Origin: Cyanidioschyzon merolae
Taxonomy: Eukaryota
Direction: 5' to 3' (one strand)
Length of the DNA stretch: 64,000 bases
Assembly (NCBI GenBank): GCA_000091205.1
Contig: AP006502.2
The translations under genes were made by a program, and so were the position numbers. Of the stretch, positions 1,938 through 47,874 are shown piece after piece (the stretch's first letter is position 1; each line of letters opens with the position of its first letter). The notes beneath the pieces were generated by a model that was not told where the DNA came from, did no database searches, and saw only the letters and a list, made by a program, of their open reading frames with translations.

Positions 1938-2380
1938 AGCGTCGTAAACGAACTTTGCATCCAAGCAACGCGTGCGCACATCATGATCGATTCGGTATAG
2001 GAGCGTGAGAGAAACCACAAAACACTTTTGGACGGCAGCGCGTGTGGACGAGTCTTGTCAGCGCTTATCCAATGGTTCAGTGGATTCATCTGTGGAAGCA
2101 CACGATCCAGAAACGATTCGCCGCGGCGAAGTGCTCGCTGACCTCGCATTTGACAAAGCAATTTCGTCTTTTCTTTGAATCCAATACGCAATGTTTACGA
2201 GCCGTGCAATGATCCGAATGGCAACACCAACGGCGCCTCGGCGGTAGACGCAGTTGGCAGAGATCTCGTCACGAATGCGTCGCTGCACGCTCGTAGCCCG
2301 GGATATCGTGGCACTTGTCGTTGTCTCTCGAGGTGCCCGGAGATCGAAAGTGTCCACCATGACGAAACACTGGGTTGCAT

Positions 2381-5300
2381 TCACGATGTACCCGCTCCAT
2401 CGCGACCGCTGTCATCAGCGATACCTCCGGTCACATCGTCATCATCGTCAAGAGTCAGGTTGCCGAGGTCTACCTCGCGCGCCATGCTTGCCCGAGCTAT
2501 TTGCGCATAGATGCCATGAGCGCGCTCCATGAGTACGTAATGGGGTCCTTGCTCGACGACGTGTCCACTTTCGATGACACTAATCATGTCGGCAAAGTAG
2601 AGACTCTCGACGAGGTCGGCACGCAGCACGAAAACGACAGTGCGACCCGTGCAGATCGCTTTCAGGTCCAGTGCGACACCGTTCACCGTCATATCGAGCA
2701 ACGCCGCGTAACTCTCCGAGTCCAACAGAAGCATACTCGGATTACGGAGAAGGACGCGTGCAATGCCCAGCGCCTGCAACTGCGACGACGTGAAAAGCGC
2801 CTGTGCCGTTCTCGCTGATGGAACCATGGTCTGGTATCCGTTCGCAAGACGTAGAATCACCTCATGCATACCGACTAACGAGGCCGCACGGCGTACTTCC
2901 GCAAAGCATGTCCCAGTAGCACCAAAAGCGATGTTCTCGAAAACAGTCAGGCCGGCAATGAGACGGCTACCACGCCAGGGCACCAAGCCTATGGCAGCCG
3001 TCAGGGCCGCAGATGTGTAATCCTGCATCGGGTGCTCGCCAAGCATGATCCTGCCGCTGTCGGGGCGGCGCTTACCCGAAAGTAGCTCCAAAAGCAGTCG
3101 CTCCTCGCGTCGTTTCCGTAGAATGATACAATGGATCTGGTGATGTTCGATGGTGAGGTTCAGACTATGAAACACGTACTGCGCATAACGGCTGCCGATA
3201 CCATGCCGCGGGACCTTAGGATCGAGCGTATATGACTCCGCAAAAGAGCCGAACGGGGTTCCTGGGGACTGTGCGGAGGCGGGTGCGCTCCCGCTACGGC
3301 CACTGGTGGTTGACGAGACGCCGCGATCCTCTTCAAGAGGCGATGCGGTGGATGAGGCTTTCGATGCCCAGTCCTCAGGATCGTCCTTGACCGAGACATT
3401 ATCGAAAACAACGCGTACGCAGCGGTCGTCGACGCGCAAAACAGTTCCCAATCCTGCCTGACTAGCATCAACGATATCGAGCACGAAATCCAGGTACGCA
3501 TAGAGGTTCTGGCGTGCGTGCGAGTAACGCACCAGATTCTCCGTCATTCGAAGCAAGCTGATAATAAGCATGATGGCGAACAGAATGGCGGTTACTAGAC
3601 GGCCGCTTGAGCGATGCTTCGTTCTGGCAAGATGCCCGCCAATATAAATACCCAATACCGCGAAAATAGCGAGCACGAGGCCAAACGTCAGACCGCGTAG
3701 CAAGGACTGCAAGAGGTTCAGCCGCGCATCATGTTCACGTTCCACATCCGTAAACTCGTAAAGCCGTTGGAACTCCTTCTGGAACTGTTCTAGATAGACG
3801 ACGTTCGGCAGCGCAGCTCGGGACAGTTGCAGAAACTCACGAGCTTTCCGTGCTGCTTCTTCGTACCGCTGCTGGGCCCTGCGTGTAACGAACAGCTGGA
3901 GCATGCCCAGACCAGCAAGAATGGGCGTCGTGCCCAGAAGCACCAAAGTCAGAAACCAACTTTCAATGATACCGAAAATAAAGCTGCTGATAGCCTGCGC
4001 TGCGTACAAAGCGACACTCGACAGGTGCTCCACAGCGTCCAATACAAGTAGCTCCATTCGATCCAGTGTGTTCTGTTCGAAGAGCCAGCGATCGAGTCGA
4101 TCCGTGCCGACACCCGTTGTCAAAAGAAGCGCAGCAAACGACCAGAGACGGAGTCGGTAACGGACACGGCGACCAATCGTACCAAGCGAGCGACTCTGCC
4201 AGAGAACTACAAACGCAGCGGCACCGCTGATCACCCCGAATCCGATAAGGTAGCGATGAATGCTCGACACTGGGTTTCCAGCGATCACACCGTAAAAGAT
4301 CTGTGCCCAGTAATTCACGACGTGCCCGAAAAGGAACAGATACGCGGGAAAAATAACGCCAGATGCAAGGGCTGCCAACAACCCACCGACTGTCAACAGA
4401 GGTGCATTGAGGAGCCACTGACGCGGTGATAAGAGGTTCGCGATACTCTTCAGTTCTGCTAGATTGCGCTCAACGGTGTCCGAATCCACGGAGCACGCAC
4501 AGAGCGAAAATCCACAACACTGGAAGAGACCGCATCGGCGATTCCAGAGGGGTGGCAACGCTGCACTCATCGCAGGTTCGTCGGCAGAATCTCCATTCGC
4601 ATCATGCTGAGGTAAAGACTCTTCTGCACACTGTTTGGTGGCAGTCGAACTGGAACCAAGCGCCTTCTTCATCGATTCCGCCAGGGTGCGCGCGTACAGC
4701 GAGCCATCCGGGTAGATCCCGTAGACAAGCATCGCATAATAATCCATAAAAAATTCGCCGTGATCCGGCGAACTTCGCAACTTCTTGTTGAACACGTGTC
4801 TGAGGGCCTTGAACTTACCAAAGCCCCGCATGGAATCACCAGCTGGAAGCGACGTGGAAGCTTGCGCATCGCCTGGATATCGGCCAGCGGGCCCTGCAGA
4901 GCCAAAAGACGGCGATGTTTTGGGAAAGGCAGCCTGCATCCCCTGACGTGCTGCAGCTAACTGTTTCCCCGATGGATGTGGACCCTGCGCAGGTTGCGCC
5001 CCCGCAATATCGTCAACTGTAATCGCCACTGCGTCTTGGTCAACCAAACTCCGATTCATGGCGGCTTGAAAGGTCCCGTGTACAGCGTCGCTCGCTGTGG
5101 CAGGCGGCGTACTCTTGTTGAGATACTTGCGTGGAACGTAGGTTGGCGGCTCGTCTTCAGACGATGCGGAAGACAACGCCGAAGACGAGAGGTGTCCCGC
5201 CGAGCCTGTGTCCCCTGTATGAGCACCTGCGACAACGTTGTTTGCGGAAATAAGGCCAGTTCGAGGCGCGCTTTCAGACTGCGCACTGCCGCCGTCTGCA

Positions 5301-5770: not shown

Positions 5771-6527
5771 CGTCAACGGATCTCAAGATCGACGCTGATG
5801 CGCTGATACATATCGGAATTTGGACACGTGTGCTTCGCGGACCTCGTGTGTGCCTGCGTGCAACGTACATGAATCGGTACATTTCAGTTCGCAAGATCGA
5901 CGCTGATGCGCTGATACATATCGGAATATGGACACGTGTGCTTCGCGGACCTCGTGTGTGCCTGCGTGCAACGTACATGAATCGGTACATTTCAGTTCGC
6001 AAGATTGACGCTGATGCGCTGATACATATCGGAATATGGACACGTGTGCTTCGCGGACCTCGTGTGTGCCTGCGTGCAACGTACATGAATCGGTACATTT
6101 CAGTTCGCGAGATCGACGCTGATGCGCTGATACATATCGGAATATGGACACGTGTGCTTCGCGGACCTCGTGTGTGCCTGCGTGCAACGTACATGAATCG
6201 GTACATTTCAGTTCGCAAGATCGACGCTGATGCGCTGATACATATCGGAATATGGACACGTGTGCTTCGCGGACCTCGTGTGTGCCTGCGTGCAACGTAC
6301 ATGAATCGGTACATTTCAGTTCGCAAGATCGACGCTGATGCGCTGATACAAATCGGAATATGGACACGTGTGCTTCGCGGACCTCGTGTGTGCCTGCGTG
6401 CAACGTACATGAATCGGTACATTTCAGTTCGCGAGATCGACGCTGATGCGCTGATACATATCGGAATATGGACACGTGTGCTTCGCGGACCTCGTGTGTG
6501 CCTGCGTGCAACGTACATGAATCGGTA
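5771..6527. repeat. Tandem satellite, 108-bp unit, about 7 copies, near-identical.
   Basis: The unit ...aagatcgacgctgatgcgctgatacatatcggaatatggacacgtgtgcttcgcggacctcgtgtgtgcctgcgtgcaacgtacatgaatcggtacatttcagttcgc recurs at 5785, 5893, 6001, 6109, 6217, 6325 and 6433. Copies differ at only a few positions (caagatc/cgagatc, cataTcgg/caaAtcgg). The period is a multiple of 3, so it produces long artefactual ORFs in three frames. Confidence 0.9.
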
Positions 6528-8092
6528 ACGTTGCGTGATCCGATTGGAAACCTAAACTCGTTTCAGACCGGAAGCAGAACCGTTCGGGATGGAACAGCGT
6601 CAAAGTGTATTCTTCCATACCGCGGTTTTTATTTTTTTGAAATTGTATGCGTTCAGGAGAAATGATTCACGCAAAACGTTGTCATTTTGGGTGTCTCGTT
6701 CGATGCTGTCAAAAATAATACTTGAGGTCTTTACGTTCCAGAACATTGCCTGCAATTGCAATGCCATTAGGCGGTGTTTGGCGATATGGTTTGAACGCGG
6801 GCTTCCGTGCGCCCGCTGAAATCCCTAGGGCTTTGCTCGGGTCTTGCGCAGAGTGCTTGACAGCCAGCAAGTGGCATTGGATCACGCTGGGCTGTAGCCA
6901 GGGCGTTGGGTATACTCGAATCGAGGCACTTGTCTGTGGAGCAATGGATGATGTACGTTCTACGAAGCGTGAATAGATAGGGCGTCGTCCGCTGTTTCTG
7001 CTGGGGGATTCGTCCATTACCAAACAACAGCTAGAGGCTTGCCATGAAAACTCGCCCTTTGAATAGGGATTTGCGGCGCATCTAGATACCTCCTGTGCCA
7101 GTGTCGCTTCATGGTATCGCCTAGCATTCGATCAAGCCCTCCGTTACTCCAGCAATTGAAGCCCTCGAGAGGAGCAACGGTGAAACAGATGCAAAGTAAA
7201 GTATGCATCCATGCTACGCAGCGGATCCTGGTAGAATCACTGCATACAGGGGATTCGTACAGGAGAAGGACCGTTTTCGCATTAGTCCAATGATATAGAA
7301 CAGGCCAGTCTTCAAGACGAGCATCTTAACCATCCTCGGTTGCGTTATCCGAGCGGAATAATTGCCTTCTACACAATCACTCATGACTGGGTCTGTGTTC
7401 ACAGCACCTGCATGAATCGGGGTATAACCAATGAAGGAGATTCCCCACGATAGCGCACGACGCCGCGTTCGTGCCAGTACCACCATGCCATGAACACATG
7501 CTGATTACGCCATTTGCATCGCCAACTTCTCGTCGACAATAGAAACGCACGAGACTCGATGCACTTGTCCGCAATGCGGGCGACATCGCGTGCCTCAGAG
7601 ATCCGTTTGCGATTGGCCGTTCAATATATATTTACAAAGATCCAGGCCGACTGTGTGGCGTGCAGACGGAGACAACAAAGCCACCGTGGATCGTCATCAG
7701 CCTACAATGCCACAGATTCGTGCACGATCCACCGTTTAATAAAAACGGAGATCGTCGACGTCTCGCAGCAAGCGCATGCGTTCGAGTTTTGCATGCAATC
7801 GTCAACGTCAATCTTCATGCAAGAGAAACTATTCGTCCGAATCACTGAGCAGAAGCTAATTGCCAGCGAATTCCATCCGTCACACGAGAGAGAGAACATC
7901 CGCATATGCTGTAGTACATTTTGCGTGAACGGAATCAAGGAACATCTGTTATTTCCAGTGGTTTGCAGCTTCGATGCGACGGCGACGACGACGACGACCA
8001 CAACATCGCCTAGCACGACCCACCCATGCGTTCGAATCGTCCAAGCGAGGCCATTCGCCAGCATCCGAATCCTATGCTGCGCTTGTTTCCCG

Positions 8093-9304: not shown

Positions 9305-9739
9305 CGAAAAAGCAGACGGAGTTGCAATGACGGGCAGTGGTCAGTGCGAGTTTCGCGATTCCCGTACAGGAGCCAAATCAAAACGGTACACCAGAGTGCT
9401 CGCGCTGTTCCTGCCTTGAGCATTTTTTTCGAAGTTTTGTTTGATGTTCAGTCTCTATTCTTGAAGTGGAGTTATTGGTGAATGAAAGATTTATACTAGG
9501 GTCTAGGTTGGTCAACCGCTCGCTCGGAGTGAAACCTTCGACGTTTTGTTGCCTCTGAAATTTGTGACCTCATAGACGACACAATAAAGCGGAATTCAAT
9601 TGAATATGGGTTCGTAAAATATCCGGTATCATTATCTAGTTCATACCTACAAACCTCCACGGTTCTGCTCCAGAGTTGTGTGTCGCATGCTCAAATGGCA
9701 TATTCTTCAAGTTTTTCGAATACCCGCGTGCGTAGTTGT

Positions 9740-12310: not shown

Positions 12311-13516
12311 TCAATCGTCAGCAGTCGAAGTGTGTTGAAGGCAACTTCCTAGTCCCGATCTCGCCGCCTCCGGCTCTTGTCAAAGTACTACATGCACGGC
12401 CGGAAGCTGTAATCTACGCTTCGCCTGCCATTTTCATCTTCTTTAGATAAAGCAAAAGTGCGCCCTTCAGCGCCGCGGTCCTTGACTGTGTTCAGCTGTT
12501 CCCAAACGACCATCACATGACCTCCGAGCGCCATCCTGTGTCAGTTGAAGGCACGCCGCATCGCCCGGTACGGGACCGGTACAGTGCGCTCCGCTCGATA
12601 CCTTCTTCCGTGTCTCCGGCCACTGCCGAACCCTGCGATGACGGGCTTCTGCTGCACGATACCCTCGAGGAGTACGTTTTGCGCTACGTGCGCAAGCGCG
12701 CGCTGTTCCACGTAACAGAGGATCCGCGGAAAGCAACGCTGTCCGCAAGGAAACAAGAACCCCGAGAGAAGTCCAGTTTCGAGAAGTGACATATAAGTTT
12801 TCACTCCGTCTACGGTCCCTCCTTGCAAAACGACGACACGTTCTCCAGTCGAAACAACCGTTGCGATGTCTCAAGTCCGGGTCCAACACCCGATGCTCAT
12901 GCAGACAGAACAGCCGGGAGCAGCCTCTGGAGGCATATCCCTCGAACGGTAACCAGCTGGTGCTGCGGAACCCTGTATCGTTGATGGCCGCGAAGAGAGG
13001 AGCGTTTCTCTTCCCTACCTTGTCGACTATTAGATCACGTAGGGAAGATCAGTGAAATTGCGGCATGGACAGGCGAGCGAGTCCTCAGTGAACGATGTCG
13101 AGTTGCTTTTGTCGTCCGTCCAGTGGCGTGCAGAACTGCGCACATGCGTCGCCTTGAGGCAGCAAGGTCGGAAACTTGAAGAACGTGTCACTTGGGCGTG
13201 CGACGCATAAAGCTAAAAGAGAAGAACGGAGGTTTGTGTGTGTGTTTCTGTGAACTGAATTATGATACCGGATAGTTTACCAACCCATATTCATTCGAAT
13301 CCCGCTACATTCCGTCAACTACGACCTTCCAAAGTTCAGGGGCAGCAAGGCGTCGAAGGTTTCACTCCGAACAGACAGTCGAGCAACCTAGACCTTGGCG
13401 TAAATGTTTCATCCAGGAATGATTCCACTTCAAATATGGAGACTATACATCAACCAAAATTTCGAGGAAGCTGCTCAAGGCTGGCATAGCGCGAGCACTT
13501 CGGTGTAACACTTTGA
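12311..13516. repeat. Long direct repeat A, copy 1 (about 1.2 kb).
   Basis: Near-identical to 17401-18596. It starts at tcaatcgtcagcagtcgaagtgtgttgaagg and ends near ...gcgcgagcacttcggtgt. Only a few SNPs or indels separate the copies (e.g. tgtgtgtgtgtttctg vs tgtgtgtttctg). Confidence 0.85.
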
Positions 13517-14893
13517 TCCGACGCTGGTGTAGCAAACGCGAACACTGAAATGTATGCCAGTGTCACCGGGTTCGCCAGATTCGCACACTGCCTCGATCGC
13601 TCGTCGCTTTAGCACCCCTAGCCTAATCATACTCTTGGAGGAACGGAGGTCTCGTGCATGCCTGCTTATCGCAACAGAGGATCCAGGGCTTGGTCTTATA
13701 TTCATTGACCTGATTCCATTGAGGAACAAGCTTTCCCGGGATGTTTCATGCATGACGCACGAACAGTGTAGCAACGCAACGGCACGAGAAATTCCGCGGC
13801 CGAACAGCTCCAGCAAGACCCAGTTGGTGTCTCCTGCAAAGCGAGGCCATCATATAGATGCGAGGGCTGGACCCAGGCTATCTCGAAAGAACGGAATACC
13901 TTCATGTCCGGAGCGCAACGAAAATGCCTCGCGCGATGGTATTTTCTGTAGAGAACGCACTTCATGGATCCGCGCTCTAGTTATTACAGTATAGTGCCTT
14001 CCTGTTTCACCGGTAGAAACGGTATATCGAGCGCGACGCCATTCAGTAAGTGGTATGGGCTGCTTCGACGCAGACAGTGTGTGGCGTCAACTGCGTGCAG
14101 TTCTACGCGACACGAGAACTCGACGCCTTCCTGCAGCACGATCTAGCCGCTGATTCGCTGATCGTGTATACTTGTGCGAATGCGTTGTCTGGTTGTCAGC
14201 ATCCTGTACACCAGGGATGCCTGGTGGAACATCCCGAGAAGCGGCCCGACGATTTTGCGCAATACGCGTCGTGGCTTACGCTCCAGGGCTCAGTGCCAGA
14301 GGGAAATGCGCAGCCTCTTTCACGAGAACTCGGCATGCTTTATTATCGAAGGAAGATAGAATGGTTAGAGCTGCCCATACCATCGCTGCAGTTTCCGACT
14401 CGGTTCTCAAGAGACCTGACCCGATGCGCTGAATACAGTTCACATAGGGTAAGCGAGTTTCGTTGGACTCCCACTCCAACAAGTCTACCAAGAGGTTCGC
14501 GCTTCCAATCTGACCACATAGGCTTCGCAAGGCTGTTTGAATGAGCGCTTGGATTTGATAAGGCTCAAGTCTCACGGGCACCGCAAAGTCGACGTCGAAC
14601 CTGAGGTACGCGAAGCGAGCAGGCAGCGTGCAGCAGGGTCGCAGCAGACGCATACCCGACACGTACCAAGAGACGCCTGTCCCGGTGAGCTGAACGCCTG
14701 ACGAGTCCCGATGCAGGCGCGCTAAAAGTGTTGCTTCGTGGTTCGTTAAGTGCTCGGCTTCGTCTCCAGGGCGGTCTTGAAAGCCCAGAGCTCACGAAGA
14801 CGTTGCTAGGATTCTGTTGACTGGGGCTAGCTCCGAAAGACCGTGTGTTCTTGCGACATTTCCGAATATCATTGACAGAGGCTGGCTGCTGGC

Positions 14894-17400: not shown

Positions 17401-18596
17401 ATCAATCGTCAGCAGTCGAAGTGTGTTGAAGGCAACTTCCTAGTCCCGATCTCGCCGCCTCCGGCTCTTGTCAAAGTACTACATGCACGGCCGGAAGCTG
17501 TAATCTACGCTTCGCCTGCCATTTTCATCTTCTTTAGATAAAGCAAAAGTGCGCCCTTCAGCGCCGCGGTCCTTGACTGTGTTCAGCTGTTCCCAAACGA
17601 CCATCACATGACCTCCGAGCGCCATCCTGCGTCAGTTGAAGGCACGCCGCATCGCCCGGTACGGGACCGGTACAGTGCGCTCCGCTCGATGCCTTCTTCT
17701 GTGTCTCCGGCCACTGCCGAACCCTGCGATGACGGGCTTCTGCTGCACGATACCCTCGAGGAGTACGTTTTGCGCTACGTGCGCAAGCGCGCGCTGTTCC
17801 ACGTAACAGAGGATCCGCGGAAAGCAACGCTGTCCGCAAGGAAACAAGAACCCCGAGAGAAGTCCAGTTTCGAGAAGTGACATATAAGTTTCATTCCGTC
17901 TACGGTCCCTCCGTGCAAAACGACGACACGTTCTCCAGTCGAAACAACCGTTGCGATGTCTCAAGTCCGGGTCCAACACCCGATGCTCATGCAGACAGAA
18001 CAGCCGGGAGCAGCCTCTGGAAGCATATCCCTCGAACGGTAACCAGCTGGTGCTGCGGAACCCTGTATCGTTGATGGCCGCGAAGAGAGGAGCATTTCTC
18101 TTCCCTACCTTGTCGACTATTAGATCACGTAGGGAAGATCAGTGAAATTGCGGCATGGACAGGCGAGCGAGTCCTCAGTGAACGATGTCGAGTTGCTTTT
18201 GTCGTCCGTCCAGTGGCGTGCAGAACTGCGCACATGCGTCGCCTTGAGGCAGCAAGGTTGGAAACTTGAAGAACGTGTCACTTGGGCGTGCGACGCATAA
18301 AGCTAAAAGAGAAGAACGGAGGTTTGTGTGTGTTTCTGTGAACTGGATTATGATACCGGATAGTTTACCAACCCATATGCAATCGAATCCCGCTACATTC
18401 CGTCAACTACGACCTTCCAAAGTTCAGGGGCAGCAAGGCGTCGAAGGTTTCACTCCGAACAGACAGTCGAGCAACCTAGACCTTGGTGTAAATGTTTCAT
18501 CCAGGAATGGTTCCACTTCAAATATAGAGGCTATACATCAACCAAAATTTCGAGGAAGCTGCTCAAGGCTGGCATAGCGCGAGCACTTTGGTGTTC
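17401..18596. repeat. Long direct repeat A, copy 2.
   Basis: Same sequence as 12311-13516, 5090 bp downstream and in the same orientation. Confidence 0.85.
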
Positions 18597-18696
18597 CATT
18601 TTGATCTAACACGACTTCAGCGCATTGAGCTCTGCGGTTCTCGGACAGCGCTCTTGGAACTGCGCCTACTTGTCTGCTTCCCTCACTTTACTGTAA

Positions 18697-25112: not shown

Positions 25113-26313
25113 GATTAGGGAAACAATCCAGCGAGTGATGCACTAAGCCAAATACCGCAACGTGCGTGTAGTTTCCCAGGCAAAGACTCTGAGTTTGACA
25201 CAGTGTCCGACTTTTCAAATGCGCTCCTTGCTCGTGAAACACAGCCCAAGGCGCTCACAGACAAGCTTCCAAGTGGTCTCCCAACAGCGTACTCGTCTGT
25301 GTACAGCGTACAATCAACAACGTTTTGAAACAGGGACACATAACGTCGAACTGGAGCAGTGCCGTTCCCGCCTTGTGCTGCACGCATGCATGACGCGTGG
25401 ACACGGATCAGTCCGATACGTGCATTGTGCTGTCGATCGATTTTTTTCGATGAAAAGAACGTTCCATGGACCACGGGATACCAGCGTGCGTAATGGATAT
25501 TGAAATAAACGGAAGCGCTCAATGTTCTTCACTCTACCTCCAAGTTGCATCACTTTTACTTCCTTTCGGATGCGATGGCCGTTTTGTACGTTGTATCGTG
25601 CGCCGAGTGCCTGCCTTGCTGCATGCGTGATAGCAGTTATGCCGCCGGTGCAGATGCAGCACGGGCACAGAACGGCTTTGCCAGATCACTGAGGGCATCG
25701 GATCGCGGGACGCTTCACCTGATACGAAGTCGGAATACGTAATCATTCTGGGGGCTTGAAAACTGGGCAGGCAGATGTTCTTTATGCGGCAGCGGGAAGC
25801 GATGTACTAGGATTCCAACCCGACCAAGGCGATGCCCAGACACAGGATACCCGCTCCTAATCCCAGAATAAACTGTGACGAGGCGGTGAAGGACCTCACG
25901 AATCTGAAGAACCATTTGACAATGAACCTCGAACGTTTCATGATACGCGCCGTGTTTGTGCTGTATCCGGGTGTCTCTTGCAAAGGAATATGGGCGATTA
26001 TCAATGGCATCATGAACGATCGATAGTATAAAGATGAGATCGAATTCGTCGACAAGACGACATCACGCAGGAGCACAAATGAAGCTTCCGTAATCTGTGC
26101 GGTTATACAGGAGCACTGCGCAGTCTTGGGGCTGGCGAATCGAGCAGGAAGGATATCAGAGTTGAAAAAGATAAGGAAAGACACTATCGCCTCGTCCTGC
26201 GCAATTTTGTGTTTCTGGACCGAGAACTCGAATGCAAGGCGGAGATGAAGCCTAATGAGGAAAACATGAAGAGTGGGAGAGACGGAAGGCGTCCCTAATG
26301 GGTAAGCGCTTCA

Positions 26314-27597
26314 ATGGCGTTCTGTTGTGCAACATCAAGTCACATTTTTGTGACTATCGACTCCAGAATCCTACATGGCATCATGAGGGAGAACAGTCCG
26401 GAGTTCGATGTTAGCAGGGAGAACTTCACCGGTGAAAACCGGGAGACGTACTGGAAGAATATCTTCGATTTCAGATGTCTCAAAACAAGCAAGAAAAAGA
26501 ACTTCACTGAGATGATCGAAACCGATGGAGTAGCCATGTGTGTACACCATCGGCGCTTGAAGGCAGATCGTCCAGTTCCGCTCTCGACTTCGCCCTCGGC
26601 GAAGCATGAACATGAGTAGAGGACGGATCCTGCCACTCAGAAAGTGCAGGATCACGACCTTGTCGTTGGCGCAGCGGAGCATGAAGATGAGAAGGAGGCG
26701 GGTCTTGAGAAGCAGAAAGTGCAGGATGACGACTTTGTCGTTGGCGCAGACCCCCGAAACACAAATATCATAACGATCGCTGTACCTAAGCGTGCGGAAG
26801 ATGGCATTGACGGCAACTTATGTCAGAAAGACATACGTCTTTTGAGGTTCTCTAGAGCAAGATACTATCGAGAATCGGGAACCATGAATGCAAGGAAGAA
26901 AATCGACACATGGAATGGAGGAATGAAGGGTCACCTGGGAGCTTTGAGCGAAGTGACGAGCCGAGGAGCGGACTTTCGAGCTTTTCGGAAATTCATGGAG
27001 GTTCGCGTTGCTCATTGGGAGGTGCTGTGGAAAGAGTATACAAAGCCCCGGTCGGCTCGTTTGCGAATGAATCTATACAGTGGGAAGCAGCGGGCGTTTG
27101 CCAACTTTTTCAATCAGTTGAGTGCCTTGAAGGAGGACGAGAGTCAAAGGCTCGTAGTAGCGTATGGGACAGCGCACTGGGCGCCCAAGAAAGGCACTAA
27201 GCCAGCTCCAACGACAAGAACTTACGAGGAGTGCGCAAGGCGTTTTGTTACGATACCTATAGATGAGTTTCGAACATTGTATACACACCATGAGCTGGGG
27301 TGTATACTTCAAAGGGTCGAGATGGAAAAGAGCCAGTAGAGCCCTGAAGTTATAAAAAAGTACGGAGCACTGACGGAAGACCAAATGGAAAGGAGGGCGA
27401 GAGTTCGAGGATTGCTTGCACTAGTGAGTACAACTACCAGTGGCAAGAAACGCATGGAGTTTGTGAACCGCGAATTCAATGCCGCAATCAATATAAGGAA
27501 ATGTGCGGTGCTGGAGAAGAGACCTCCAGAGTTGGCGAGAGAGAATTTTGTTGGACAATCTCTCAAAGTCGAACTATATGAGAAAAAGTTGGAATAA
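26314..27597 (+). pseudogene. Decayed Fanzor/TnpB-like (OMEGA-family RuvC) nuclease gene. One frame is interrupted by in-frame stops at 26620 and 27340.
   Basis: ORFs 26314-26619, 26644-27339 and 27385-27597 all lie in frame 1. A RuvC-I-like block is ...[20 protein letters not shown] RuvC-III-like block is GKKRMEFVNREFNAAINIRKC, matching the TnpB/Fanzor RDxNAAxNI motif with D to E. The intervening RuvC-II position reads RLVVAYGTAHW. A 75-bp internal duplication sits at 26641-26790. Confidence 0.55.
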
Positions 27598-27994
27598 GTG
27601 GTGTGTGGCCGGTCCAAACAGGTTGCGAGGCGTCTGCACAACTGTCGGAGACGTTCTGTCTAGGGCGGGCTCCTCGCCACTACTGTACACCGCTGGCGGA
27701 AACGTTTTTCTTTTGAAAAGCGTTCGTTGTTGGCTTTGGTGAGCTCAAGCTTTGACTATCATTTGTTGAATAACCAAATTAAAACCAGTGAGTGGATCGT
27801 GTGCTCCAGTGGAAAACACCGTGCTCCACTGTTGGTTGCTTACGCGCCTCACTCTGAGGAGGCCGTGCATTTCAGGAGCGATCCGTCCCCTGCTGCTACA
27901 GAGCGCATAACGCCGTGACCTCCCGACGAGGCACTGACAAGGTTAGTGTACAAGTTCCAGGATCCGAGCAGCACCAGACGGCAACGCGCTACAA

Positions 27995-30253
27995 ATGCCA
28001 AAGCAAAAGCTTAAGCTGCCGCGTGGGCCGCAAGGCCGGCTTCCATCATCCTCTACTGATCCAAACCGAGGTAACCGCATACCTGGAGGTGGCGGTTGGG
28101 GTCGAAGTCGCGCTACCGTTAAACGAATACGGATGTATGCTCGTCCCGCTTATGAGCGAGACCGCAACGGACGCATCCAGCATGATCGTGGCGACCTGAC
28201 GAGTTCGGTCGTGAAAGAACCCGGTGCGGGTCGAATCGCTCCAAATCGTCGTTGGTTTGGAAATACTCGTACAATTGACCAGGAGAGTCTCCAGACTTTT
28301 CGAGAGAGCATTTCAGGTGCAGAGCGCGATCCATACACGATAGTTCTGAGACAACGGCATCTACCGTGGACGCTCATCAAGGAAGGCATGGAAGCGAGAG
28401 ACGTTGAACGTTTTGAACATGCCGCAGGCAGGGCAAACCTGCGGTCGCATGCATTGGCGGAAGGCTCGGAAATGACAAGGGGAGTACGGTTCAAGTCCTC
28501 TCAGGCGCTGCTTCGTTTGGAGCCTTTCGCTGAAACATTTCACCAACGTCGCTGGAGAAAGCGACCGCGAATCGCCTTCGATAGTATAGAAGAACTGGCG
28601 GAAAGCGTTCGAGATACTGCCACAACTGCAGCCGCGGCCGCCGGTGCTGCTCAAGCCACCACTGCGGAGCCTGGCGCTGGCAGCGAAGAGCCGAGACCCG
28701 AGGCAGGCCCAGATACATTGCGATCACGCAGTCTGCCTCCAGTACCAGGAGCCGAACGGTCTACAGCAGGTTCATTGAAACAGCTTGCCTCGGAGCAGGT
28801 TCCTGAGCGCAGCATCGATGCACTGGGCAAGACGGCGTACACGAAAGGCCAAAGCCACCGCATCTGGTCGGAGTTGTACAAAGTCATAGATGCTTCCGAC
28901 GTGGTGCTGTTCGTGCTCGATGCTCGGGATCCACTCGGCACCCGTATACCGCTCATTGAAAATATGCTCCGCAAAGAGCATGCTCACAAACACTTGGCTT
29001 TCGTTCTGAACAAGTGCGACCTGGTGCCAAAACATGTCACTGCTGTCTGGTTACGTCTCCTGAGCCGTGAGTATCCCACCGTTGTTTTTCGTGCAAATGA
29101 CTGCAAACGCGCATTCGGGCGTGGAGCGCTCCTACAGCTACTCCGGCAGTTCGCGCGCCTGCATCGCAAAGATCGCCAGTCCATCACCTGCGGTCTCGTG
29201 GGCTACCCTAACGTTGGCAAATCGTCCATCATCAATGCTTTGCGGAAGGAGAAGGTGGTGCGAGCCGCCCCTATTCCCGGAGAGACCAAAGTCTGGCAAT
29301 ATGTAACCCTTTTCCGTCGTGTGTACCTCGTTGACTGCCCAGGGGTGGTGCACGCGCGCCTCGCTGGACACATGGACGTCTCTGACATGGTGCTTCGCGG
29401 TGTTGTTCGGATTGAGAGCCTCCGCGATGATGCGGAGCGGCATATACCGCGTCTGCTTGAACGAGTCAACCGACATCATCTCGAAGCTGTTTACCGAGTG
29501 AGCCTGGATGGATGCGACGCCGACGGTTTTCTCGACGCTATCGCCCGGGCTCGCGGCAAACTTCTTCCTGGCGGTGAGCCCGATCGCAACGCTGCAGCCA
29601 AACTGCTCATTCATGATTTCATTCTGGGTCGACTGCAATGGTACGTCGCACCGCCGGCGATGCCCTCCTCAGTGGCGAAGGCAAACGCAGTGCTCTCTCT
29701 GGACGGCAGCGCTCGCGCCTCTGTCATTGGTACGAACGCGGTTGAGGTGTCGTCCGCTGGCGACGATCGGAACTCGCAAATGCAACGCCATACAGGGAGC
29801 AATGCTGGCGTCTCGAGTCCCGGATCAGAAGCGCTTGACATGGACGAAAGACGAGCCCACTCTGGATCAGCGGCCACCCGCCCGCTGGTAGATGGAGCTG
29901 ATCTGCTCCTGCACGATCTACTAGCCGAACAGAGTTTCGATGAAGATGATGAGGCTCCTGAGGCGCTGTCTGTGTTTACGACAACGAATACTAGCCGAGA
30001 TACCAGCGCTGGAACGCAGTTCACACCGGATGCAGCGGATAGTACTGCGGGGACATCGTCACCAGTCCGAGTCTCTGAAACTGCCGAGCGGTCCATCCGA
30101 AAAGCCCGGAAAAAGTCAACATCAACGCGATCGAAGCGGCGTGCAGGTCGTCTTTCCAAGCGGTTGCGTCGGCTGGCAGAGTGGAATACGGAGCCCGTGC
30201 TGCAGGCAAATCTCCAACGGACATTGCAGAAAACCGAGCCCAGGGTCCATTAA
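27995..30253 (+). CDS. NOG2: Nucleolar GTPase Nog2/NGP1 (GNL2; circularly permuted YlqF/YawG-family GTPase) with a long Ser/Thr/Ala/Asp-rich, basic-tailed C-terminal extension.
   Basis: NRRWFGNTRTIDQESLQTFRESI...DPYTIVLRQRHLPWTLIKE; KGQSHRIWSELYKVIDASDVVLFVLDARDPLGTRIP; permuted order G4 HKHLAFVLNKCDLVP, then G1 GLVGYPNVGKSSIINALRKEKVVRAAPIPGETKVWQYVTL, then G3 YLVDCPGVV. This is colinear with yeast Nog2. Confidence 0.9.
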   Translation: MPKQKLKLPRGPQGRLPSSSTDPNRGNRIPGGGGWGRSRATVKRIRMYARPAYERDRNGRIQHDRGDLTSSVVKEPGAGRIAPNRRWFGNTRTIDQESLQTFRESISGAERDPYTIVLRQRHLPWTLIKEGMEARDVERFEHAAGRANLRSHALAEGSEMTRGVRFKSSQALLRLEPFAETFHQRRWRKRPRIAFDSIEELAESVRDTATTAAAAAGAAQATTAEPGAGSEEPRPEAGPDTLRSRSLPPVPGAERSTAGSLKQLASEQVPERSIDALGKTAYTKGQSHRIWSELYKVIDASDVVLFVLDARDPLGTRIPLIENMLRKEHAHKHLAFVLNKCDLVPKHVTAVWLRLLSREYPTVVFRANDCKRAFGRGALLQLLRQFARLHRKDRQSITCGLVGYPNVGKSSIINALRKEKVVRAAPIPGETKVWQYVTLFRRVYLVDCPGVVHARLAGHMDVSDMVLRGVVRIESLRDDAERHIPRLLERVNRHHLEAVYRVSLDGCDADGFLDAIARARGKLLPGGEPDRNAAAKLLIHDFILGRLQWYVAPPAMPSSVAKANAVLSLDGSARASVIGTNAVEVSSAGDDRNSQMQRHTGSNAGVSSPGSEALDMDERRAHSGSAATRPLVDGADLLLHDLLAEQSFDEDDEAPEALSVFTTTNTSRDTSAGTQFTPDAADSTAGTSSPVRVSETAERSIRKARKKSTSTRSKRRAGRLSKRLRRLAEWNTEPVLQANLQRTLQKTEPRVH

Positions 30254-33200
30254 ACGAGTACAGAGTGAGAGCAGTACCATTTAAGAGATTGTAGAACCTT
30301 AATTTCAGTGGGCCTGAGTTACGGAACACCATAATCGTTTATCGCTAGCAACTGCTGGGGGGCTCGTTTCTGGTGTATATATATCTATGGCGCACCAGCT
30401 TTGCTGGAATGCCGAACCGTACCAAACCATACCATACAAGTGCGTTGCTCCAAGCGAGAATCCAATACCCTTTCCCTTGGCCTCTGAAAGAGTTCAGTCC
30501 AAGCCCATAGCTTTTCCGCAGGATGCGCATACTGAGCATCACACGATTCCCTCGAAAAGTTCGGTCGAAACAACGCTGTCAGACGCTCGGGCAGCACGAG
30601 GCATTTCCGCATTGTGACCGCGATGTTGTCGTTTCTGTGCATATATATCGCTTTGGCTCATGGTTGCTCGTGGAATTACACGATACCAAGCATCTCAGTT
30701 GTGTTTTCCTCGTCATCCAACGTTCGCCCAGAGCTTACCTTACACCATCTCGTGTGTGCGTCTCCGTTTTGCGTCCCTTGCCTCTACTCGTTTCATCTTG
30801 AACTCGTGCTCGTAATACGCGCGTGCTAGCCTGGAAGAATCGATGGGAATCATACAGAATAGATTCCCGCACTTATCATACACTTCCGTGGAAGGAGCAG
30901 AAGTGCTGGCCTTGCGCGTCACAGCACGCTCTGCGAAGCGCGCTACCTCCAAACGAAGCGACTTGTCGATCGTTTCCTTTCCCAAATTGCTGAACGAGAT
31001 GAAGAATGCATGTTTCTTGTTGCGATTCATCGGAAACCGTTGAATACGCTTGCACGGTCCCATATACTCCTGTAAAATGTCGTCTGCAAGCACCAGGTGG
31101 ACGCTCAGTTCTCTTCTGCATGAATTGCCAAAAGTTTTCTTGTGTTCGATAAGGGTCTCAGTGCCTCAATGCGGGTCTTGAAGCAGTTATTCCACGAGTT
31201 AGTATGCCTGCCGACGTCCATCATGCCCGCTCTTCTATAATACTGGGCCCCGGAGAAGTTCAGCAGTTTCACCAGATTATCGCTCTAGTCTTTTGCTCGG
31301 TCCAATTGATTTTGGGGTACGGCGACGGCTACAAAGACTTTTAGCGGAAGTTCAGGCCCACGAATAAGACTTCCTCTATATCTACCCTGAACTACTGAAA
31401 AAGAATCTCGTAGCTCGATTCATGCGAAGTATTTGAAAAGTGCATGCAGATTCATGTTCCGTAGGCCTCCATGCTCGATGTAAACCTCTTTCCATTTCCT
31501 TGCTATAAGAGCGAGACCTTGGACGCGCTCCGCAAACGCTCTTCGCAAAGTTCTGGAAATGCTTTAATCATGTTCGCAGAGGCTAGTTGCTGTTCACTCC
31601 GTAGGACATGCAGTACAGAAGTGCATATACTGAGATAGAGGGTCTTGATTGGACATTTGGAAGCCAAGCGGAACACAGTTTTGTCGTGCCGACGGCGCTC
31701 GGATGCGAGAAGCGTTCGTCGCTCATGAAGGCGCAATGCAAGATAAGACAGTGGCGCGAAATGTACTCCAGGTATCGCGTTTCGACCATCCTTGGAATAC
31801 GATGTTTTTCGGTCCGCATCCGAGAACAATACGATGAGTTTGATCGATCGTTTTCTTCTGGACGCTTTTTCCGAATTCGCCACCATCAGCTCTTCCATCA
31901 GTCCCGACTTTTCTGTTTGAGTGTGATGAGGCTGGGACAGTGATAGAGCGGTAATTATGAAGAGTTGGATATTGAGCCGCATATTGTTTTCGGTATCGAG
32001 GATAATCTTATATTTTTAAGCACCTGCGCTATATATGATGCTTTCGCTGAGTTGCCACTGCGACGCGTCAAGGTATTCTGAGAAGCACGTGAGCAGCTCC
32101 TGGTCCAAAGATCAAGCCTGATTGCGTCTTCTGTCGACAGCACCAGTCGCACTGCAGCACGAAGGTGTGATCGAAAACGGTTCCGAATGAATGTGAATAG
32201 CTAGTGGCTCTGAATCCGCAACTCGTACAAACAGTTACTCGATGAGTTGTGTCATAGCGATAGAACCGAAGCGAGCCCTGGACGAGTTAGTAGCTCCATG
32301 ACCTATGATAACTTCCCGTATCTTACGATTTTTCTCAGATTCATTCTTTTGATGCGTTCTTGTTCGTAGACTTGGACAAGGCTTTGAACCGGTCTTGCTG
32401 TACAGAGAGTTTTTCCATTCTTTTCGTCCCAGTCCCTTGTTCGGGAGAATCTGTCTCACCTTTCTCAGGTAGTTTCTTCTCCTACTGTTTTGCAAGGTGG
32501 GGTGGTATGAATTTGGCCGCTGTACTCCAAATCTGAGTTATTCCTCGGGATTCGAACGCAAAGCGTAGATGATGGGCGCCATGCTAGCCGGTTGTATCGA
32601 TGTATATCTCCACTTCTCGTCGAGCAATTGTTCATCGTCTTCCGTTTAGCGAGCACGCCGCTGACCGCACCGCACTATTCCGCTTCCTCCTGCGTACGAA
32701 GAGAGAATCAACACAGACGGGAAGGGGAGGCGAAGCCAGAGAACGACATGTCGAGCAACGATTAGTCGACGAACTTCTGTGTCTTGTGTGCGAAAGACTC
32801 GTCTATGGACCTGCGAGCTTCAAAATGGCATGTTAGGACAGAAAAGACGCTTTCGACTGGATTGGACCAAGTAGAGCAGGCCGGCAGGACAAGCGACTCA
32901 ACGCCTATCCCAGCTGCGCAGGAATTTACCGCTCATGAGTAATGAAAACCTAACTTTGTGTAAATGCATAACAGAATATTGTCGTAAGCAGAAGCTGCGA
33001 ACTAACTCGATGAAGAAATCCGGTCGCTGTACGATCCTCTATTCTTGGTGACTTGTAGGAGGCCACAAGATCGAATCGCCGCTAGAGCGGATGTCATTGG
33101 AATGCGCACATGTCCCTTCTTAACGAAAACTGAAGAGACCCGCTTCGAGGTACCCATATTTAGGTCTGCGTCCTGTTCTGAATAAAGCGTTATCGACTGA

Positions 33201-37588: not shown

Positions 37589-40500
37589 TGATTCCGTCGT
37601 CGCCTTCTTCCCGTGCAGTACAGGCTCGCAGGGAAGCAGGTTCAGCCGGCCGTTTCAGCGTGTTCGGAGACAGTCTCTACGTAGAAATTGTGTATTGTAA
37701 GGAGTGCTACTCCAGGACGACGTTTGCAGAGGTTTCGATCGCTGGCGGAGCTCCAAGCCTAGCACGGGAAAGGCCTGTAGATGTTTCAGATAAACCTCCG
37801 AGGCAGCGTGGCTGCCGCCTAGAGCCTCGGATCGGAACGGGGAGGCTTTCGGGGGAACGGTTTGAAAGTGTTTGCGATGTTACACAGCTGATTTTCATAA
37901 GGCGGAAGTTGGATGCGGAGTCAGCACCTGACTCCGCAGCCAACTTCGGGAAGAGCAGGTGCCCGGACTCGGAACCTCGCAGGAGCCGCCTACCGCGCAT
38001 GGATTTGGCACGGCACGCTGTGAGCATCGTCGCAGCAGTGAACGGAGCTGGCAAACTAAGGTGCTTGATGAAGATGTTGGGCGCGCTGCCTTTACTCCAG
38101 TGACGAATTCGTCTGCAAGCCCTGGCGAGCACCCCGCGGTACCTCGACAGCGTCAGAGGCCGTTGACTACGCCAAGCAGTATGCGCTGGTGACTCCATCC
38201 AGAAAATGTCGACCGCTGGCGAAACAGCGAAACATGCATGCTGTTCATGTAGTGTGAGCAACCTTTCCAAAGACCCATAGCCAATATTCGACTGCGATAG
38301 CGCTCGCGATCTCCGCTGGGATTTAGACACCTCAAGGCTTTAGGTGTTGGATATGCCTACCTGCTTGCCTGCATGATCCAAGGTGGAAACACGTTACTGT
38401 GGGTGCTTGGCAAAGCGTCGCGCAGGACTGCTCTCTATATCTTTGTACATTGCATCAATGCGTATAGCCATCCGCACAAGGAACGACGGCGTTGCCGCGT
38501 TCCAGACGCAAGCCCTATGCCTTCTACTTCATTATCAGGAGTGCTCCCGCAAGTTTGTGGCGATAGTACAAGTATGCTGGTTGCATGCACGTGCACATGG
38601 AAGGTGCTCTGTCCATTCAGCTTGGGGACGCTCCCATGCATAAAACAAAGCGTAGAGAGGCAACATGGTTGTGCGTGATCGAGGGGTACAGAGCGGTCCT
38701 GGAGAATGCAAGCGAAATGAACTTTCTCACTCCTTGTTTGGATTCGTAACACTCGGTTTCCCTGCAAGTAGTGAATTCTCGGCCTAGCGCTATCGGATTT
38801 CAGCGCCACAATGACCATCTTTGGTGCATGTCCTGAATATACACCTGATGCAAGGATCGTAGCACCCTATGTTTGCGCAGTAGCTGACCATGCCTGAGCG
38901 CAACGAACGATACGTCGTCTTGAAGAGGGCCTTGTGGCGCAATACGCAAATAGACGATGTTTACTTCTAATTGAGCGTGCCTGACCCCTGATATCGGCAA
39001 TCATTATGCACGGGTCAGGCACTGATCGAGGAGCGCTCGCGAGAGACAGATACAGGCAGGGCAACAGGATTTCATGACCATTGCTGCAAGCCAATTCACT
39101 CTATCGGAAACAGTGAATCAGAGTGAGTACGAATGTTCCGGCACACAGAACGCGTTTTCAAGCATGCTTCCGGCTGGTGGAGCTCGGCTTGGATTGGCTG
39201 TTGCCGAAATAATGCTTAATATTGCGTTTCAGATTAAAACGGAATACTGAACGTCTCGCTCTCTTCCTGCCATTCGAATTGTCCGAAGATTTTCACGTAC
39301 GGGCCCGAGGTTGGAGATGCAGCTATCAGGGTTTCCGGATTCATGCGTAGTTTAAGGTTATGGGTCGAGTTTCCGAAGTTGCTGCTTCTACGTTCTGCCG
39401 CCGGAATTCCTTTTGTCACTGTCATCAAGGTGATTGGCGACTCCCTCGACCAAGCTTTCATACAATAACCGATATCGTTATCCAATGCATACGTAATAGC
39501 CTCCATTCTTCTCTTTTCCTTACAAGTAGCATGGTCAGGTAAAGCATTCTCTAAGTTTTCGATCTTTCTCTTTCAAGGCAACGCGTGAGTGCACTTATTT
39601 GCACCGCTTGGTTGACAACTGAAATACTCAACTACATTAGTTGAGGACTGTTCATAAGCTCATGCGGAAAGGTTGCTGAATTTGTCACGTCAAACAATCG
39701 ATTCCATTCGAAATAGAACGCTTCCCTTATTCGTGTTCGTTGACGAATCAGGATACGATAGCAGCATCATGCCTCTAAGAATATACGCTCCGAGAGACAT
39801 CGATCTTTTCTCTTCGCATGCACTGAGGTCTTGGAGCCAGACCCTAATCCTCGCAGCGATCGCTCGTGCTAAAGAGCGCATTATCGTTTTGATGAACGAG
39901 AGCAGAAACGGATCGACTTTCCTCCAGCCTGGATTTTCCTTCCGATTTTCTTTTCATCATAATCAACATCGTGTTCCACAAACGATCTACCGAATAGCAG
40001 CACGTGCGCTTGCACGTTAAACAGACATACTAGTCGCCGAGTGGATCACCCAGAACAAGCCTGTGTCCGTAAGATACGTCACTAGGTGCGAAATCGGAGG
40101 AAGGTTCGCCCAGGCGAGCCCTGTCTACACGTCATGGGCACTACCGAGCAATGAGGCAAGCCGTAACGCACCACGGGGTTGAACTCGTTGAACGATGTGT
40201 GGTGGAGATATGGAAACGCCTAGCCACAGTCAAGTGTGAATCCTGCGAAGGTCGCATTCATGTTGCGTATCCAGAGGGCGAGCATTGCGAACGAAGCGCA
40301 GATCACAACTACCATCCGTGCACGAATTTCTTTGACAACGCCTGGAATCAGCAAATTCAGGACTTGAACACTGCAATCAGCACCCTTCGACTGCTGACAA
40401 CCAAGCCGGAGCGACAGGACAGACTAGCGTATTCAACGCCCCAGATAATAGACGCGAACGTGAAACCCCCACAGAAATAGCCTGCGAGGGCTGGTGTTGA

Positions 40501-46984: not shown

Positions 46985-47874
46985 CACGTATGTACCGGAA
47001 AAGCCGCCGCGTCACGTGCGACACGCGCGCTCCTCCGGATTTGATTCCGGTCTACAGAGCGTCTCCATTTTCAGATGACAAAACGTTTACATTGACCATG
47101 GATCCCAGAATAGCGAATGGATAGTGACTTTCGGGAAAGCGTCCATCATGCTACACTGTACCTTGTATTGCTGATATTTCCTCTTGGCTGTACTAGTCGT
47201 TTCGTACGTTGTATCTGGCACCGACTACCTGGCGTTGTGTGCTAGCAATAACGCGTATAGCTCTTGTGCGAATGTTATCCTGAGACGGAACAGCTTTGCT
47301 GTACCAGAGAGGGCATCGACTCGAGGTGCGTGTCACCGCGCACGGAATTGGGACTCATCATCATTCTGGGAGCCTGGAAGCTGCGCGTACAGACGTAATG
47401 CCTGCGACTGCACAGAGCGGTATTCTAGGAGACCGCGGCGACCAGAGCGACACCCAGACGCAGCATCCTGCTCCTAGTCCCAGAACGAATTGCGTTGCGG
47501 ACGAGCTGCGCAGGTCTCGCCACAGCACCTGCCACTGGAGGAAGCATGAAGCATGAGTCCGGCAGACTCGTTCGGATCGCGGGACCTTCCGCCTAGAAGG
47601 TAAAGTTTCGAAGATATGGAAACCTTCCCCCGTTCCAACGTTTACCTTTGAGTTGGAATGTAGTTTACATCGAGTTGCTATTTAATGGTTCGTTCCTGCC
47701 CTTTCTTACCTGGGAAAATGCTCGCTGCTCACGGGCGGGCACGACTGGGTATCTGGGCAATGCGTTCCGCGCATGGTATCCAGATCCATGGGCTCGCCCG
47801 TGCGGTAGTGATACGAATGCGTTTGTAGCCTCTGTTGACTTTCGCTCATTCGCGTATGCTATCGTTCGCGAACG

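Follow-up and report, generated by a model that had tools for sequence, protein, structure and literature searches.

A decayed copy of the Fanzor1-encoding element CMe-1A in Cyanidioschyzon merolae

We analyzed a 64,000-nucleotide stretch of the Cyanidioschyzon merolae genome (contig AP006502.2 of assembly GCA_000091205.1), referred to here as the window. Positions 25448 to 27724 of this stretch are, almost certainly, a decayed copy of CMe-1A, a nonautonomous element without terminal inverted repeats (TIRs) whose single open reading frame (ORF) encodes the Fanzor1 protein CMe-1. The object is thus an ordinary pseudogenized copy of a family published in 2013, and as such is already known: Bao and Jurka (Mob DNA 4:12, 2013; PMC3627910) described CMe-1 as a Fanzor1 protein of 734 aa carried by CMe-1A, whose 3,169-bp consensus is represented in C. 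merolae by ∼150 copies, each ∼80% identical to it. They reported no TIRs, left the target site duplication undetermined, found the 5′ 635 bp to be 95% identical to a second repeat, TE-N2_CMe, and noted that some C. merolae copies still encode an intact protein. An earlier annotation made from the letters of the window alone (the sequence-only reading) had proposed a relic of a Fanzor/TnpB-like RNA-guided nuclease gene at 26314-27597, and was right to do so given both the identity with CMe-1A and the Fanzor1 profile and fold described below. Its further suggestion, that Fanzors are sparsely catalogued and that even a dead copy points to an active family elsewhere in the genome, needs to be qualified: this family is old and has been catalogued since 2013 with its ∼150 copies, and none of 82 metagenomic loci that we fetched carries a full-length ORF, the longest open stretch being 594 of 734 codons.

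Identity, extent and lesions of the CMe-1A copy

The CMe-1 protein and CMe-1A DNA consensus sequences were taken from the supplementary files of PMC3627910. In a blastn comparison, the DNA consensus matched the window in three colinear pieces that touch both consensus ends: consensus 1-423 corresponds to 25448-25875 (77.6% identity), 1399-2194 to 25878-26672 (88.2%), and 2121-3169 to 26674-27722 (87.5%). Because the consensus aligns in this way, the relic spans 25448 to ∼27724 rather than 26314-27597; its last two bases (TT) lie beyond the consensus end, are shared by other copies, and close a terminal hairpin. At the protein level, the joined 427-aa conceptual product is 78% identical to the CMe-1 consensus over 423 aa (BLASTP, 680 bits, residues 316-712), a match too long and too close to be due to chance; the same alignment shows a 25-aa insertion, which is the tandem duplication discussed below.

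The ORFs at 26314-26619, 26644-27339, and 27385-27597 lie in one common frame, with TAG codons at 26617-26619 and 27337-27339 between them. ORF coordinates and translation confirm what had been read from the sequence, namely that the three are split by TAGs only; the two TAGs are real, although they had been placed 3 nt too far downstream, at 26620 and 27340. The expected RuvC-I-like block and VNREFNAAINI are both present in the translation. As for the joined product, given earlier as ∼428 aa, its length of 427 aa is close to that estimate, but its first ∼10 residues (MAFCCATSSH) are an out-of-frame translation: there is a +1 insertion at 26345, and true homology is in frame from ∼26346. Upstream of 26314 the pseudogene continues to 25878 in other frames, where the N-terminal part of the relatives (…NLKNHLTTNLERF…) is found. 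At the other end, homology extends beyond the TAA at 27595 as far as the ancestral stop, TAG at 27661-27663. At both TAG sites, sense codons are found in intact relatives and in the published consensus, and the alignment is colinear without a gap, which identifies the two TAGs as nonsense mutations, not introns.

Lesions were mapped by pairwise alignment to the consensus, in which the ORF occupies 906-3110. In total, the copy has suffered a 975-bp deletion, three frameshifts, four premature stops, and an Asp-to-Glu replacement at RuvC-III. The deletion took the rest of the 5′ module, the promoter region, the 5′ untranslated region, the ATG at consensus 906, and the coding sequence through codon 164, with the basic N terminus. 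With its reading frame deleted in part, shifted, and interrupted by nonsense codons, and with the RuvC-III Asp lost, the window copy cannot make CMe-1 protein.

Measured against the consensus, the copy has a ratio of nonsynonymous to synonymous substitution rates (dN/dS) of 0.32. Family-wide, identity at the three codon positions is 0.869, 0.895, and 0.806, compared with ∼0.80 to 0.81 in noncoding parts. Together, these values argue for purifying selection on the CMe-1 protein in the lineage from which the copies arose, prior to the death of this one, an argument also made by Bao and Jurka (2013; PMC3627910).

Fanzor1 membership and the catalytic sites

The close homologues of the relic's protein are 177 unnamed JGI/ENA (hot-spring) metagenome proteins with 50 to 80% identity, some labelled only as PF26935 (DUF8286), and more than 80 genomic loci carry copies of the element. 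A profile of 19 close relatives retrieved 1,508 proteins (E ≤ 1e-3) among 1.84 billion cluster representatives (50% clustering), many of them 600 to 740 aa long with the same architecture. Against the PDB, this 19-sequence profile alone gave no match, and a Pfam search of six intact close relatives gave none either, in a local Pfam copy that lacks PF26935/DUF8286; we found no mention of DUF8286 in the literature searched.

An alignment of 49 sequences, 24 to 40% identical to the red-algal proteins, shows the DPG Asp, the DEFRT Glu, and the D, N, and A of NRD-NAA to be invariant (columns D314, E486, D555, N557, and A559). Searched against the PDB, the profile of this alignment matched Fanzor1 proteins of solved structure: PpFz1 of Parasitella (9cf0; E = 1.6e-19), SpuFz of Spizellomyces (8gkh; E = 3.4e-12), and GtFz1 of Guillardia (9cer; E = 3.3e-5), with the DPG, DEFRT, and NRD motifs aligned in these matches. 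Of the profile searches recommended in the sequence-only reading, Pfam gave no match with the window protein; the profile of diverse relatives matches solved Fanzor1 structures.

An AlphaFold model from the shallow 19-sequence alignment was unusable (predicted local distance difference test score [pLDDT], 36), but the diverse alignment yielded a model with a pLDDT of 81.5 and a predicted template modelling (TM) score of 0.75. The top seven Foldseek matches of this model in the PDB are all Fanzor1 proteins (E from 1.7e-12 to 9e-9; TM score up to 0.60 over ∼600 columns); they are followed by ISDra2 TnpB (8h1j; 2e-3), Cas12 relatives, and the Fanzor2 protein ApmFz2 (9b0l; 1.6e-2, TM score 0.18). 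The profile and fold tests used intact relatives ∼70% identical to the window copy. Given the ranking in both, the CMe-1 family is Fanzor1 by sequence profile and by modelled fold.

The sequence-only reading had taken LVVAYGTA for a degraded middle catalytic site, on the expectation of a Glu. The family consensus at this place is LVVAYGAGRW, and the alternative Glu is kept at 27265-67. Work by Jiang et al. (2023; PMC10530073) showed Gly or Pro in place of the canonical RuvC-II Glu in Fanzors and in some TnpBs, in which an alternative Glu ∼45 residues downstream is essential for cleavage; in CMe-1, the alternative Glu (VDEFRTS) lies ∼33 residues downstream of the canonical site, and in the window copy the TS of the DEFRTS motif has become TL. 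Judged by these alignments, the middle site is normal for the family, and the catalytic lesion of this copy lies instead at RuvC-III, in the Asp-to-Glu change that the earlier annotation did not mention. The family has the RuvC-III Asp expected of Fanzor1; since the window copy now has Glu there, it is a pseudogene of a Fanzor1 member and not a working member (Table 1).

Table 1. Positions of the CMe-1A relic, its parts and lesions, and a second element in the window
Feature	Position	Strand	Evidence or comment
Whole degenerate CMe-1A copy (5′ module, internal deletion, Fanzor1 pseudogene, 3′ terminal region)	25448..27724	+	blastn of 3,169-bp CMe-1A consensus against the window
5′ noncoding module, first 423 nt of CMe-1A (TE-N2_CMe-like)	25448..25875	+	blastn to consensus
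Junction of 975-bp internal deletion (consensus 424-1398)	25875..25878	+	Alignment to consensus
Fanzor1 (CMe-1) pseudogene remnant, consensus codons ∼165-734	25878..27663	+	Ends at ancestral TAG 27661-27663
Premature stop TAG	26024..26026	+	Local frame; Lys/Gln (MAG) in consensus
Three frameshifts: −1 at ∼26165, −1 at ∼26261, +1 at 26345	26165..26345	+	Alignment to consensus; homologous peptide hops among three-frame translations
Two tandem 75-nt units (26599-26673, 26674-26748)	26599..26748	+	81% identical, repeat search
Premature stop TAG (first TAG of the sequence-only reading)	26617..26619	+	AAG in sister repeat unit; Lys/Glu in relatives
RuvC-I catalytic Asp codon GAC in GADPRNTN	26749..26751	+	Asp kept; DPG changed to DPR (family consensus GADPGNTN); D314 invariant in 49 relatives
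Canonical RuvC-II position, Gly in VVAYG	27166..27168	+	Family and Fanzor norm
Alternative (rearranged) RuvC-II Glu codon GAG in IPIDEFRT	27265..27267	+	Kept; E486 invariant; aligned to PpFz/SpuFz IDEFRTS/LDEYKTS
Premature stop TAG (second TAG of the sequence-only reading)	27337..27339	+	Consensus CGG, Arg
RuvC-III catalytic position, Glu GAA in VNREFNAAINI	27472..27474	+	Consensus VNRDFNAAINI; D555 invariant in relatives
Premature stop TAA	27595..27597	+	Consensus GCA, Ala; 22 codons ahead of ancestral stop
3′ noncoding terminal region with two hairpins	27664..27724	+	RNA fold −21.7 kcal/mol, z = −2.8 (last 61 nt)
Terminal 10-bp hairpin (AACGUUUUUC-UUUU-GAAAAGCGUU)	27701..27724	+	RNA fold
Solo TE-N2_CMe-like element, separate from the relic	47074..47707	+	CMe-1A consensus 2-639, 78.7% (blastn)

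Tandem repeat, element termini and alternative readings

The 75-bp internal duplication noticed in the sequence-only reading is borne out by two units, 26599-26673 and 26674-26748, that are 81% identical; a Tandem Repeats Finder (TRF) run did not report it, and it was a separate repeat search that found it. Translated, each unit gives a 25-aa acidic repeat (…QKVQDNDLVVGAAKHEDEKEA…) located just upstream of RuvC-I, and the last copy of the repeat runs into the RuvC-I strand (…VVGADPGN…). There is one unit in the published consensus, two in the window copy, and up to about five elsewhere. Variation in unit number was seen in P0001, P0002, P0007, and P0044, in L012 at 6873-7174, and in L017 and L019. 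The duplication is thus one extra unit of a family-wide variable-number tandem repeat rather than a peculiarity of the relic. In the AlphaFold model the repeat region (residues 259-299 of P0016) forms a low-confidence linker, and it is probably disordered.

The 3′ end of the element folds into a terminal hairpin that we consider a candidate right-end cis element, guide-proximal ω-RNA stem, or terminator. Among 51 distinct copies, the hairpin arms pair better with their own partner than with that of another copy (mean of −6.9 versus −5.1 kcal/mol; Mann-Whitney U test, P = 1.5e-4), and the same comparison showed no effect in three other putative 3′ helices or in two coding controls; these results support a maintained terminal hairpin whose arms co-vary. 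A scan for helices by pairs of alignment columns was uninformative, because conserved columns of G and of C/U pair indiscriminately, and mapping the minimum-free-energy pairs of each sequence to columns gave no common pair, with indels shifting the register between subfamilies.

The right end itself does not coincide with that of the published consensus. Among 31 distinct right ends, homology passes the consensus end, first through TT and then through a degenerate GT-rich tail (TTYGYTGTYG…). Copies can be aligned for ∼2 to 16 nt past the end of CMe-1A in the window (27723-27740) and in L005, L013, L017, L024, L026, L032, L036, L081, and others. The consensus therefore misses either the true right end or a target-site preference. 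No inverted repeat was found joining the element termini. The sequence-only reading had advised a search of the flanks for TIRs; no such pair emerged, in agreement with PMC3627910.

Left ends fall into two discrete classes, one at consensus position 1, with the TE-N2 module, and one at ∼648-703, without it. Copies of the latter class have at least two other shared 5′ modules upstream, or an inverted TE-N2 end plus an A-run. Loci with modular 5′ regions group as L001/L009/L032, as L004/L021/L024/L026/L042/L043/L071/L080/L081, and as L013/L025/L037/L053/L072; in L018, two copies lie head to head. The 5′ region of the Fanzor core seems, from these alignments, to be modular or nested. An origin by retroposition resembling that of long interspersed nuclear elements, with 5′ truncations and a simple-sequence tail, was considered and set aside, since the 5′ ends form two discrete classes and no continuum. 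Directly 5′ of position 1, a run of 5 to 8 T, often ending in C, is present in 16 of 22 distinct flanks, against a background T frequency of 0.21. In the window, T-runs are found at 25441-25447 and 47068-47073; on the other strand they read as an A-run after the TE-N2 end. The T-run could reflect a preferred target or represent a poly(A)-like tail belonging to TE-N2_CMe.

Several observations weigh against the reading of the relic as a copy of a Fanzor1 element with a guide-encoding 3′ end. Single-sequence searches of the 427-aa conceptual protein against Pfam, NCBIfam, and the PDB (phmmer) gave no match, and the evidence for the Fanzor link therefore comes from the published consensus and from a profile and a model built chiefly on relatives, rather than from the window copy. 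CMe-1 lacks the CxxC...CxxC zinc finger: the corresponding sequence, TSYTHHELGC...EKC, has no CxxC pairs, and the consensus of the 49-sequence clade retains a single Cys (LLWC) with no C4 zinc finger. Bao and Jurka placed CMe-1 in Fanzor1 despite a zinc-finger motif in their 2013 definition (PMC3627910); a C4 zinc finger between the [TS][TS] motif and RuvC-III, typical of Fanzor1, is evidently not universal. At the 3′ end, RNAalifold found no consensus structure in 61 aligned sequences, an Rfam search of the region gave no match, and noncoding identity, at 0.81, is no higher than at third codon positions. Finally, no biochemical test of any CMe-1 or Cyanidioschyzon Fanzor nuclease was found in the literature searched.

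Other explanations must be set against the same evidence. It is extremely improbable that the TAGs are short introns, or recoded or read-through codons, of a living gene whose ∼428-aa protein is still made. Both noted stops are TAG, the frame is kept across them, and dN/dS against the consensus is below 1; the low ratio, however, is explained by selection acting in the master lineage before insertion, and relatives and consensus align straight through both sites with sense codons and no gap, so that nothing is spliced out there. On that gapless alignment the intron reading was rejected, including the form that the sequence-only reading had itself raised, in which the in-frame stops belong to introns of an unrelated gene. 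A living gene would also have to contend with the further stops (TAA at 27595 and TAG at 26024), with three frameshifts and the loss upstream of the ATG and 164 N-terminal codons, and with the mutated RuvC-III catalytic Asp. It is just as improbable that the protein belongs to the TnpBs of prokaryotes (IS200/IS605 or IS607) or to Fanzor2 and is present through contamination or recent bacterial or viral transfer. The RuvC motifs are common to all three groups, and distant relatives give subthreshold matches to the Cas12f1-like TNB family PF07282 (E = 0.002 to 0.09), but PF07282 stays below its gathering score in these relatives and is not found in the window protein, Fanzor2 is absent from the profile matches, and Fanzor1 ranks far above TnpB (8h1j, 2e-3) and Fanzor2 (9b0l, 1.6e-2) in profile and fold. 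The canonical RuvC-II Glu of TnpB is replaced by Gly; the element has no TnpA or serine-recombinase ORF, its consensus containing a single ORF; a length of ∼600 to 730 aa and an N-terminal half that is long and helical are typical of Fanzor1 proteins; and the relic lies between cyanidialean nuclear genes, with a G+C content about equal to that of its surroundings. The TnpB and Fanzor2 identities were rejected on the fold and profile ranking, the Gly at RuvC-II, and the missing transposase or recombinase ORF.

A third alternative accepts that the coding part is dead and holds that the intact 3′ module (27664-27724 plus flank) is still used, either as a right-end cis element acted on in trans or as a template for ω-RNA. 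Nothing is missing from the 3′ end up to the final base that family members have in common, and it forms their terminal hairpin, the arms of which co-vary across copies, and some intact C. merolae copies exist according to Bao and Jurka (PMC3627910). Against this stand the lack of 3′ noncoding constraint above the level of third codon positions, the null results of RNAalifold and Rfam, the absence of an intact ORF from all 82 loci examined, and the deletion of the 5′ half, which means that mobilization would need the right end only. We consider continued use of the module very unlikely, and see only an outside chance that the right end (hairpin 27701-27724 plus the GT-rich tail) is still transcribed as an ω-RNA-like guide for intact CMe-1 in trans. 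If it were, decayed copies would keep programming cleavage or homing at their own flanks, which here lie ∼270 bp upstream of a gene for a NOG2-type GTPase.

Genomic setting, significance and relation to known systems

The gene downstream of the relic (27995-30253) encodes a NOG2-type nucleolar GTPase, with 58% identity to its counterpart in Cyanidiococcus, 54% in Cyanidium, 46% in Galdieria, and 99% to a JGI metagenome protein; an exact-sequence look-up of this GTPase gave no match. Taken with the matches to CMe-1A and TE-N2_CMe, these cyanidialean affinities point to C. merolae or a very close relative. The right end of the relic lies ∼270 bp upstream of the start codon of this gene (27995), in the same orientation (27724-27995), and the relic may contribute to, or sit in, the promoter region of the GTPase gene. 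Among the fetched loci, none is orthologous to the window flanks save one short metagenome contig, L083 (JGI 3300050369), which matches window 27673-31072 at 99.2% identity and has its start within the final 50 nt of the relic. The same insertion beside the NOG2-like gene therefore exists in an environmental strain; the assembly of the contig probably broke in the repeat.

The sequence-only reading had recognized the relic as the only coding sequence derived from a mobile element in the window; with the solo TE-N2_CMe-like copy at 47074-47707, the relic is not the only mobile-element sequence there. Between this solo copy and the relic's 5′ module (25444-25868), identity is only 65%. The window also holds two tandem arrays, one at 5781-6527 (period of ∼108 bp, ∼7 units, 98 to 99% identical) and one at 56547-57033 (period of ∼81 bp, ∼6 units, 88 to 93% identical), as well as two direct duplications: 12311-13518 and 17402-18606 are 98.2% identical over 1.2 kb, and 51686-52439 and 63249-64000 are 97.7% identical over 0.75 kb, the latter reaching the end of the window. 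An inverted relative lies at 9377-9714 (75% identical), with weaker copies near 40292-40499 and in L001 and L002. These sequences showed no convincing ORF and may represent another repeat family.

As one of roughly 150 decayed copies of a family catalogued in 2013, the locus carries very little weight in itself. Its value is for annotation: it should be masked as a CMe-1A/TE-N2_CMe repeat and not annotated as three hypothetical ORFs. At the level of the family, there is modest interest in a Fanzor1 from thermoacidophilic red algae that belongs to a clade without the canonical zinc finger, with an invariant triad and purifying selection. CMe-1 falls in a large zinc-finger-less Fanzor1 clade with an invariant D-E-D triad and at least 1,508 representatives at 50% clustering; no tested member of this clade is apparent in the literature searched. 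An intact member of the CMe-1 clade could be a candidate for a heat- and acid-tolerant RNA-guided nuclease, and DUF8286, the only label on some close relatives, could now be tied to Fanzor1. We regard the zinc-finger-less clade, the co-varying hairpin, the ends beyond the consensus, and the modular 5′ region as leads rather than findings.

By analogy with characterized Fanzor1 enzymes, an active 734-aa CMe-1 would be a nuclear RNA-guided DNA endonuclease. Its single RuvC active site would be formed by the DPG Asp, the rearranged DEFRTS Glu, and the NRDFNAAINI Asp, and its guide would be an ω-RNA transcribed from the 3′ end of the element. For CMe-1 itself, the nuclease mechanism, the ω-RNA, and the mode of mobility are inferred.

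Of the known systems, CMe-1A (PMC3627910) is the closest: the relic shares with it 78 to 88% DNA identity and 78% protein identity, the lack of TIRs, and the 5′ TE-N2_CMe module, and its divergence from the consensus falls in the range reported by the authors (∼80%). It differs in the 975-bp deletion, the extra 75-bp unit, the frameshifts, the four stops, and the D-to-E change at RuvC-III. Relative to the copies that we compared, the consensus itself departs in two respects, since copies share ∼2 to 16 nt past its published 3′ end and about half lack the TE-N2 module and start at consensus ∼650-700. TE-N2_CMe, a ∼635-bp noncoding repeat (Repbase; PMC3627910), makes up the 5′ module of the relic (25448-25875); unlike the Fanzor core, it encodes nothing and forms a separate copy population, and beside the core it is inverted or absent in several metagenomic loci.

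The solved Fanzor1 proteins, SpuFz1 (8GKH, 9CEU-9CEZ), PpFz1 (9CF0-3), and GtFz1 (9CER-T), resemble modelled CMe-1 in overall fold (TM score up to 0.60) and share with it the DPG Asp, the rearranged Glu in D-E-[FY]-x-T-[ST], the RuvC-III R-D...N-A-A, and a long helical N-terminal half. Sequence identity between them and CMe-1 is only 13 to 16%, however, and the CMe-1 clade lacks the TNB CxxC...CxxC zinc finger; moreover, SpuFz1, PpFz1, and GtFz1 are characterized nucleases, whereas CMe-1 is known here from sequence and model, and the window copy is a pseudogene. Prokaryotic TnpB (ISDra2 TnpB, 8H1J; IS200/IS605, IS607) has a homologous RuvC nuclease core in common with CMe-1, and its paradigm of an element-encoded guide RNA supplies the mechanism proposed for CMe-1. 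Unlike CMe-1, TnpB1 has the canonical RuvC-II Glu, a length of ∼400 aa, and a TnpA partner, and its fold match to the CMe-1 model is much weaker than that of the Fanzor1 structures (E = 2e-3; TM score 0.2 to 0.3).

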